From positions 128,001 through 192,000 of the forward strand of contig CAVTJJ010000006.1 in the NCBI GenBank assembly GCA_963735035.1: 64,000 bases of DNA. Direction: 5' to 3'. The notes under the pieces are model-generated. The model saw nothing but the letters and a program-made list of their open reading frames with translations, did no database searches and was not told the DNA's origin. Shown here piece by piece: positions 38,656-38,733 of this stretch. This stretch comes from an uncultured candidate division Zixibacteria bacterium (GTDB lineage Bacteria > Zixibacteria > MSB-5A5 > GN15 > FEB-12). Every line of letters starts with the position of its first letter. Positions within the stretch are counted from its first letter, which is position 1. A program made the translations under genes and the position numbers.

Positions 38656-38733
38656 ATGGCGGACTACAAACTGACCGTAGAGGTGCTCGAAGCCCGCATA
38701 GCCCCGATGGGGTTTAGCTTGGGCGGACAGTAG
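38656..38733 (+). CDS. 25-aa putative precursor peptide MADYKLTVEVLEARIAPMGFSLGGQ (below the ORF-track cutoff)
   Basis: Strong SD AGGAGGTG 5 nt before ATG; promoter upstream, terminator downstream; LExRxAP leader-like motif; follows the RRE-M50-HlyD gene. Confidence 0.8.
   Translation: MADYKLTVEVLEARIAPMGFSLGGQ

Follow-up and report, generated by a model that had tools for sequence, protein, structure and literature searches.

A conserved gene of 25 codons was identified at positions 38656-38733 (+) of a 64,000-nucleotide stretch of DNA from an uncultured candidate division Zixibacteria bacterium (contig CAVTJJ010000006.1; this stretch, at its full length, is referred to as the window). It encodes a short peptide with a leader and a core, and it lies 316 nt downstream of the gene of a 771-aa membrane protein related to the peptidase that removes the leaders of daptides. 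The open reading frame (ORF) is a real, conserved gene, and the pattern of its evolution suggests that it is translated. An earlier note on this DNA had pointed to an unannotated 25-aa ORF with a near-perfect Shine-Dalgarno (SD) site, a promoter-like site and a terminator-like hairpin, and all of these were located. The decisive context, which is missing from that note, is the upstream gene, in which a domain like a RiPP recognition element (RRE; RiPP, ribosomally synthesised and post-translationally modified peptide), an M50 protease and a HlyD-type adaptor are joined.

Conservation of the peptide gene

The ORF begins with ATG at 38656 and ends with TAG at 38731-38733, giving the product MADYKLTVEVLEARIAPMGFSLGGQ. 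An SD site, AGGAGGTG, is found 5 nt 5' of the ATG (38643-38650, +), and every one of the 17 aligned orthologous small ORFs has GGAGG before its start. The ORF listing begins this frame at an upstream GTG (38614, 39 aa). Nothing upstream of the ATG is conserved in relatives; the conservation, the SD site and the start codon of the relatives all begin at the ATG.

Using the large upstream protein as query against 41 related genomes, a full-length orthologue was identified in 38 of them. A small ORF on the same strand was present 205-524 nt downstream of the protease gene in 17 of 20 loci, with its SD site, start and stop kept. Of the three blank loci, L016 ends 27 nt past the large gene, and L011 and L014 have no such ORF within 1.5 kb. 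All 17 aligned peptides agree at M1, Y4, L6, E9, L11, E12, R14 and S21. When the family was searched with a 25-position profile (threshold E ≤ 0.01 per genome), 207 of 285 Zixibacteria genomes were matched, far more than chance would give; the best match was at 3e-17, and 193 of the 207 had a single match. These matches cover 146 of the 198 genomes of good quality and 93 of the 130 genera. The conservation among relatives at the amino-acid level, on which the earlier note had made its claim depend, is therefore present, and the peptide family is well supported.

Among 81 distinct leader coding sequences, the summed entropy at codon positions 1, 2 and 3 was 8.2, 5.4 and 20.7, and the ratio of non-synonymous to synonymous polymorphism (pN/pS) was 0.25, a value biased downward by the choice of these sequences through an amino-acid motif. 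An unbiased DNA alignment of the whole spacer from four close relatives showed the ORF, the SD site, the stem of the terminator and two hairpins of the 5' untranslated region (UTR) as conserved islands. The rest of the spacer, which is 200-500 nt long, is unalignable, and the differences within the ORF of these four relatives are synonymous third-position changes. The SD site, start and stop are kept even in loci where the protease is only ~35% identical, and the reading frame is maintained across changes in the length of the core.

No family of Pfam or NCBIfam was found for the peptide; a search of the 17 peptides against NCBIfam gave none at E ≤ 10. Four Pfam matches of single members, at E values of 0.06-0.19, were dismissed as noise. 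Rfam gave no match at E ≤ 1. A collection of ~15 billion predicted proteins does not contain the exact 25-aa sequence; it does contain orthologues of 30-32 aa, which are named only 'hypothetical protein'. The RRE-M50-HlyD protein and these peptides are undescribed in the open-access papers and preprints that were searched, reviews of efflux systems among them; the supplements of the daptide paper lay outside this search and may list other RRE-protease families. Papers on TMcins, judging from the parts of them that were available, describe a different, Gram-positive system.

The upstream protease-adaptor protein

The 771-aa protein (36024-38339, +) is a three-part membrane protein, as judged from Pfam, NCBIfam, hydropathy, an AlphaFold2 model and Foldseek. 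It comprises a PqqD/RRE-like domain (residues ~1-138), an M50 site-2 protease and a HlyD/MacA/EmrA-like adaptor (~441-771). This division agrees with the hydropathy profile, in which a membrane block (~139-440) separates a soluble N-terminus (1-138) from a soluble C-terminus. Pfam analysis identified Peptidase_M50 and HlyD domains (HlyD_3, HlyD_D23). The best NCBIfam match was NF041824 (daptide_HExxH, daptide biosynthesis intramembrane metalloprotease; E 1.5e-66), which covers residues 26-387 and profile positions 20-365 of 379 and scores 225.1 bits against a cut-off of 300. The protein is a relative, not an equivalog, of the daptide leader peptidase. A weak match to NF058609 (YydH/LiaK) was also obtained (E 1.2e-9; 38 bits, cut-off 225).

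The PqqD family PF05402 was matched by 8 of 18 orthologues (best E 8.8e-7), with no match in the window copy at E ≤ 0.1, and one database relative of the protein carries the name 'PqqD family peptide modification chaperone'. PF02163 was found in all 18 orthologues, and the M50 motifs HExxH and (N/D)PxxxLDG lie within predicted helices, as is characteristic of M50 proteases. HEFAH (191-195; H191, E192 and H195) and D293 of NPLIKLDG are invariant in the 18 orthologues. The AlphaFold2 model, built from an alignment of 18 rows (mean predicted local distance difference test (pLDDT) score 80.1, predicted template modelling score (pTM) 0.45), shows, at 12-83, three strands and then helices; long helices extend through 431, after which come strands, with four long helices at 512-637. 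The top Foldseek matches were the adaptors MacA, EmrA, MexA and AcrA (E 4e-15 to 1e-8), led by MacA and EmrA at 4e-15 to 1e-12, which places the C-terminal part with adaptors of the HlyD/MFP type. One polypeptide so combines a putative leader-binding domain, an intact site-2 protease and an adaptor of the TolC-docking type. By analogy with such adaptors, the adaptor domain would face the periplasm.

Pairing and predicted docking of peptide and protease

The pairing of the peptide gene with the protease gene is well supported, with the protease gene found on the same strand no more than 2.5 kb upstream of the peptide gene in 79 of the 86 distinct places that had enough sequence. The two genes are unlinked in one family of the order (f4; loci L131, L132, L134 and L135): 22 kb separate them in one complete genome, and in a second genome they are on different contigs. 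A motif search 3' of the protease gene found nothing in the 18 loci that lacked a profile match. A 49%-identical protease-adaptor gene was seen in five loci (L077, L078, L083, L086 and L106) that have no peptide, kinase-TPR (tetratricopeptide repeat) or histidine kinase gene downstream; the next gene in L077 (6692-8092) encodes a 466-aa protein with a signal-peptide-like start.

A complex was modelled from residues 1-400 of the protein and the peptide, each with its own alignment (for the peptide, that of the 17 orthologues). The model scored 0.69, the best of three controls reaching 0.01. This mark is reached by 116 of 157 solved complexes and by 2 of 215 mismatched pairs, a calibration that is rough for the present case with its own alignments and a partner of fewer than 30 residues. 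At least 88% of contacts were shared between runs, and the pLDDT of the partner was at least 67. The confident contacts place peptide residues 8-11 on the strand at 33-37, with residues 6-8 touching 40-44 and 73-80; taken as a whole, peptide residues 6-11 run along this RRE strand in the model. Overall, peptide residues 1-20 contact RRE residues 33-38 and 65-84 as well as H191, E192, H195 and 291-296, and the interface also takes in 212-228. The modelled geometry is that expected for an RRE feeding a leader into the active site.

The leader and core of the peptide

The leader part, M1-P17 (MADYKLTVEVLEARIAP; 38656-38706, +), and the core octapeptide MGFSLGGQ, with its stop codon (38707-38733, +), were delimited from the window sequence, the alignment of 17 orthologues and 94 distinct copies drawn from all fetched loci. 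Among these copies the last two residues of the leader are AP in 84, SP in 5, VP in 2, IP in 2 and ET in 1, so that Pro stands at -1 in 93 of 94. Core length ranges from 6 to 20 residues; Ser occurs in 93 of the cores, Cys in 2 and a C-terminal Thr in none. The core of the window is uncharged, with three Gly among its eight residues, no Cys and Gln as the last residue. The leader/core architecture that the earlier note had proposed is borne out by the conserved leader, by the Ala-Pro junction and by cores that differ between lineages.

The common type of core in the phylum is x-G-hydrophobic-S-x-G-G-Q, to which tails such as FQIGP, LRGGPWG and WDFGGGWG may be added. The core is not hypervariable; the variable core that had been expected does not apply to this lineage, where the common pattern is kept instead. 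In one genus, 4-7 profile matches per genome were found in four of five genomes. Arrays of precursor genes are located there 3' of the protease gene, with five genes in L057 (6450-7520), seven in L060 (6430-8170) and four in L062 (6470-7590). The array precursors have an unchanged leader and hexapeptide cores such as SKYGVD, SRYGAE and SRWGAD. In these three loci the kinase-TPR gene is absent and the histidine kinase gene directly follows the array. A third type of core (GSASNGSS, GSVSASG) occurs in distant members, including an RBG-1 genome. The search by regular expression that had been suggested earlier gave a single copy in the genome of the window itself, where LE.R[ILVM]AP occurs once in the six frames of 3.6 Mb. 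Paralogues with a conserved leader and varied cores, as looked for in the earlier note, are those of the arrays in the one related genus.

Expression signals and RNA structure

A promoter-like sequence, TTGACG-17-TAAATT (38539-38567, +), matches the consensus at 9 of 12 positions, and its TTGAC box is kept in three of four aligned close relatives. A terminator-like hairpin of 15 pairs (38755-38788) with a T run (38755-38798 in all, +) begins 22 nt past the TAG stop and overlaps the 3' end of the convergent kinase gene. Its stem, GGGCAGG/CCTGCCC, is kept in all four close relatives, with a variable loop. The consensus scans found two promoter sites against 0.7 expected in shuffles and one terminator against 0.7; they are weak taken alone, and the same elements recur in relatives.

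The predicted transcript is highly structured (minimum free energy -102 kcal/mol, z -5.4). A perfect 8-5-8 palindrome, GTGTGATC-N5-GATCACAC (38580-38600, +), occupies about +6 to +27 of this transcript and could be an operator or a 5'-terminal, stabilising RNA hairpin. Its GTGATC-type sequence was found in 3 of 91 distinct upstream stretches, in close relatives only. A further hairpin of the 5' UTR, with arms CCCCTC/GAGGGG (38603-38622, +), lies about 20 nt upstream of the SD site and shows a compensatory change to TCTCTC/GAGAGA in one relative. Hairpins ~17-21 nt 5' of the SD site occur in many loci (L002, L003, L010, L012, L013, L034, L045 and others). Their arms vary by locus and are often pyrimidine-rich/purine-rich (CCTTCC/GGAAGG in addition to the two pairs above). 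In an alignment-free test, the 44 nt preceding the SD site folded better than shuffles, with a median z of -2.8 and z < -2 in 47 of 72. RNAalifold returned no pairs on a MAFFT alignment of 35 5' UTRs, because the hairpins are misaligned in it. The 5' arm of the UTR hairpin resembles an anti-SD sequence, and the hairpin could have a role in translational control.

Neighbouring genes

The convergent neighbour of the peptide gene (38770-41775, -) encodes a 1001-aa cytoplasmic protein with a Hanks-type Ser/Thr kinase domain (16-263) and a TPR region (~450-1000). A 599-aa soluble GAF-PAS histidine kinase is encoded 18 nt upstream of it (41794-43593, -), and the two genes probably form an operon (gap 41776-41793). 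No hydrophobic segment was found by hydropathy in either protein, and a sequence search of the PDB with the kinase-TPR protein gave only generic kinase and TPR matches.

Among 50 loci of at least 9 kb, the window included, the kinase-TPR gene was identified in 34, the histidine kinase gene in 32 and an upstream oxidase gene of the DAO family in 25. Once duplicate fetches had been removed, 67 of the 72 distinct places whose core is of the Ser type had a kinase-TPR gene convergent with the peptide gene and no more than 800 nt away; none of the 16 array peptides, from three loci, had one beside it, nor did any of the three places with the GS.S type. This tally is an undercount, as some tblastn pieces stop before the end of the gene (e.g. 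L140). The counted genomes are kin, and the neighbourhood figures do not stand for independent events; a loss of the kinase gene accompanied by a new type of core has probably occurred two or three times. In the f4 loci the peptide gene is still convergent beside the kinase-TPR gene, and the order histidine kinase, kinase-TPR, convergent peptide gene and DAO oxidase is kept. This neighbourhood suggests a functional tie between the peptide and the kinase-TPR protein.

In the window, the DAO-family FAD oxidase (sarcosine/glycine oxidase-like; 34664-35812, -) is divergent from the protease gene, and such an oxidase gene adjoins the peptide gene in loci where the protease gene is absent. No RiPP tailoring family was identified among the 14 neighbouring genes scanned within 10 kb either side. 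About eight genes of the TolC family are present elsewhere in the genome, with none nearby.

Comparison with known systems

Daptides (MpaA/DapA and MpaP/DapP; Ren et al. 2023, PMC10036551) are one of the close parallels considered. According to the available part of that paper, it was the fusion of an RRE to a site-2 protease that led to the daptide clusters. The same part gives the leader motif as ELExMEAP with Pro at -1, names Leu(-7) and Met(-4) as needed for recognition in MpaA, and describes an invariant C-terminal Thr as the site of the class-defining modification. On this description, both systems have a short precursor with a leader of the form ..LE...AP and Pro at -1, and in both the protease has an N-terminal RRE or RRE-like domain fused to an M50 domain. 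The leader of the window reads V-L-E-A-R-I-A-P at -8 to -1 and has L(-7), E(-6), A(-2) and P(-1) in common with the published motif, whereas position -4 is Arg or Lys here instead of Met, Glu(-8) is replaced by Val and Glu(-3) by Ile. Unlike daptide proteases, the protein described here carries a HlyD adaptor at its C-terminus; the cores are of 6-20 residues and are not hydrophobic helices, and the module is single-copy and phylum-wide. The resemblance to daptide leader ends that was pointed out in the earlier note stands, and the best family match of the neighbouring gene is the daptide leader peptidase.

Its verdict that the peptide is not a daptide and belongs to a new family likewise agrees with these results. 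No core of the 94 ends in Thr, and DapB, DapC and DapD were not found in the genome, which is 96.9% complete. NF041823 (DapB, the RRE partner) had no match in it and none in any control genome either, NF041822 (DapC dehydrogenase) had no match, and the best match to NF041821 (DapD aminotransferase), at 127 bits against a cut-off of 450, is generic and of a kind seen in ordinary genomes. A lanthipeptide precursor was rejected, in accordance with the poor fit suggested before: the core of the window lacks Cys, as do all but two of the 94 cores, and no LanB/C/M/KC/L enzyme was found among the neighbours scanned. The suggested LExRxLL/LEPRxLL export signature did not hold, the LEPR-XLL/LEPR-8K model (NF012209, 24 positions) matching nothing in the genome at E ≤ 1. 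A double-glycine leader was also rejected; GG stands at or near the C-terminus, and no C39 peptidase was seen among the neighbours.

Other membrane proteases that act on peptides offer partial likenesses. In Gram-positive bacteria, Eep/RseP site-2 proteases produce short linear peptide pheromones (PMC10202637, in the part available). As presented there, the likeness lies in an M50 site-2 protease and in short, linear, unmodified signal peptides that are exported. Their substrates are the signal peptides of lipoproteins, the protease has neither RRE nor adaptor, and a separate ABC transporter performs the export, whereas the system described here has a dedicated soluble precursor and belongs to a diderm organism. 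The YydH/LiaK epipeptide proteases (NF058609) are alike in being M50-type membrane proteases dedicated to a RiPP precursor, but those systems require a radical-SAM epimerase and an ABC transporter, neither of which is present here.

ABC transporters of the colicin V/microcin type carry a C39 cysteine protease on an ATP-driven pump, recognise a Gly-Gly leader and work with a HlyD-type adaptor and TolC. The logic is the same in that the leader is removed at the inner membrane, from which the cargo enters an adaptor-TolC conduit; here, in contrast, an M50 metalloprotease is fused straight to the adaptor and there is no ATPase. In RRNPP signalling, a peptide of 5-8 residues is recognised by a cytoplasmic TPR receptor encoded beside the peptide gene. 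The present locus likewise has a short peptide and a cytoplasmic TPR protein encoded by the adjacent gene, but its TPR region is fused to a Hanks kinase and no import system is linked to it.

Relatives beyond the phylum

A search of 1.84 billion representative proteins with a profile built from 41 diverse family members, whose first row was a natural 32-aa orthologue, found 110 at E ≤ 0.001, thirteen of which were fetched. Some of these are single precursors with longer Gly-rich cores. Others, from metagenomes, are multi-cassette precursors (P0128, of 183 aa with four units, and P0132, P0141, P0146, P0147 and P0152); L142 (6899-7090), L146 and L148 also encode such precursors. Each cassette consists of ..(V/I)(K/E)LEERIAP, a core of 4-15 residues and the follower NHNETLV(R), and up to four are present per protein; the units of P0128 and P0132 read ..VKLEERIAP, a short core and NHNETLV. 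This layout resembles that of precursors in which recognition sequences flank each core. One cluster member is assigned by name to a Candidatus Limnocylindrales bacterium; every member that has a name is called 'hypothetical protein'. The matches of this wider profile, that one included, indicate that the leader tag also occurs outside Zixibacteria. When metagenomes were scanned with P0132, 11 short loci with such peptides were found, in the fragments of which no M50-HlyD homologue was detected (tblastn, E ≤ 1e-4).

Proposed mechanism and alternative explanations

The reading that we prefer, and regard as probable, is that the precursor is docked on the protease, cut after Ala-Pro and its core released via the adaptor, with a signal as the preferred role. 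The leader (17 residues, ..YKLTVEVLEARIAP) is predicted to dock as a beta-strand on the cytoplasmic PqqD/RRE-like domain, and docking would deliver the residues after the leader to the intramembrane M50 active site. From the daptide precedent and the near-invariant Pro we infer that the protease would cut after Ala16-Pro17, freeing MGFSLGGQ. The core is probably then passed outward with little or no modification, either into the periplasm or through a TolC-type channel encoded elsewhere, given that the protease protein includes a complete MacA/EmrA-type adaptor and that neither a pump nor a tailoring enzyme is encoded nearby. It could serve as a cell-cell or cell-state signal, with the kinase-TPR protein reading the core after re-entry, or the uncut precursor. 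We infer this signalling role mainly because the kinase-TPR gene stays convergent beside the peptide gene even with the protease gene moved away.

Several observations weigh against docking, cleavage and export of this kind. The cut site is assumed by analogy with daptides, and the complex model lists contacts with the active site and no scissile pair. For other RiPP classes, structures of an RRE with its leader have already been solved, and the docking score may derive in part from likeness to these. The score of the protease below the NF041824 cut-off (225 against 300 bits) may mean that its substrate rules differ. The peptide profile has no match in 78 of the 285 genomes of the phylum, several loci with a protease gene have no peptide gene following it, and in the f4 family the two genes are unlinked. 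The locus has no pump or ATPase, no other energy source for export and no adjacent gene for an outer-membrane channel. Conservation of the core throughout the phylum is unusual for a secreted signal, which would be expected to diversify.

A different function for the same parts would be that of an intracellular regulator, in which the precursor, or one half of it, binds the TPR region of the kinase and is removed by the protease once the adaptor senses a cue from the envelope (regulated intramembrane proteolysis). The two kinases without a membrane segment would suit such a circuit, as would the convergent kinase gene, retained in four f4 loci with the protease gene elsewhere, and site-2 proteases classically work in cascades of this sort (PMC10202637, in its available part). 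The adaptor, on the other hand, is complete, and its long helical hairpins point to a conduit and not to a sensor; moreover, the array lineages lost the kinase gene and kept the protease. This regulatory role is considered unlikely. An equally small chance is given to a tailored RiPP, possibly antimicrobial, whose core would be modified before release through phosphorylation of Ser by the kinase, oxidation by the FAD oxidase or the action of unlinked enzymes. Kinase domains modify Ser/Thr in class III/IV lanthipeptides, and nearly every core here contains Ser. Cores of the Ser type accompany the kinase gene, with three array loci and three GS.S-type loci lacking it (probably two or three independent events), and the oxidase gene is near in half of the 50 loci. 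Such tailoring is opposed by the absence of RiPP tailoring families from the 20 kb around the gene and by the rarity of Cys in the cores, and the kinase, in an operon with a sensor kinase, looks regulatory. A single-copy gene found phylum-wide, with a conserved core and without immunity or ABC genes, is also unlike a bacteriocin.

That the element is untranslated, either a small RNA or a chance frame, is very improbable. The strong structure of the transcript could be taken to favour it, but amino acids are conserved while third positions vary, SD site, start and stop persist down to loci with a protease only ~35% identical, the frame survives changes in core length, and Rfam is empty for this sequence. 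Slighter still is the chance of a cis-acting leader or arrest peptide with control over a gene downstream of it. The ORF is short, with a strong SD site and the Pro-containing motif RIAP, as might be expected of one; the terminator, however, follows closely after the stop, the next gene is convergent, and the layout is the same in relatives.

A broader form of the preferred reading, docking and cleavage of the precursor followed by release of its core, is doubtful as a whole. In it, a pump-less machine of RRE, site-2 protease and TolC-docking adaptor would secrete an unmodified autoinducer of 6-20 residues, which would be read by the Hanks kinase-TPR protein and the GAF-PAS histidine kinase. 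The same tag on single, arrayed and multi-cassette precursors in other phyla would then mark a widespread, undescribed route of export and signalling.

Significance

Cleavage of a leader by an RRE-fused site-2 protease is not known outside the final step of daptide biosynthesis. In the present system a putative daptide-like cleavage logic occurs without the tailoring chemistry, joined to an efflux-type adaptor and retained by most genomes of an uncultured phylum. The so far unnamed peptide gene and the adaptor-fused daptide-type leader peptidase together make up a new form of leader-guided peptide maturation, and the conserved leader provides a search handle for further peptides of this kind. 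If the proposed mechanism is true, these peptides would constitute a new family of genetically encoded short peptides overlooked by gene callers, their release would represent a route to peptide export without a recognisable pump, and the locus would provide diderm bacteria, in which signalling by peptides is considered rare, with a candidate circuit of this kind.

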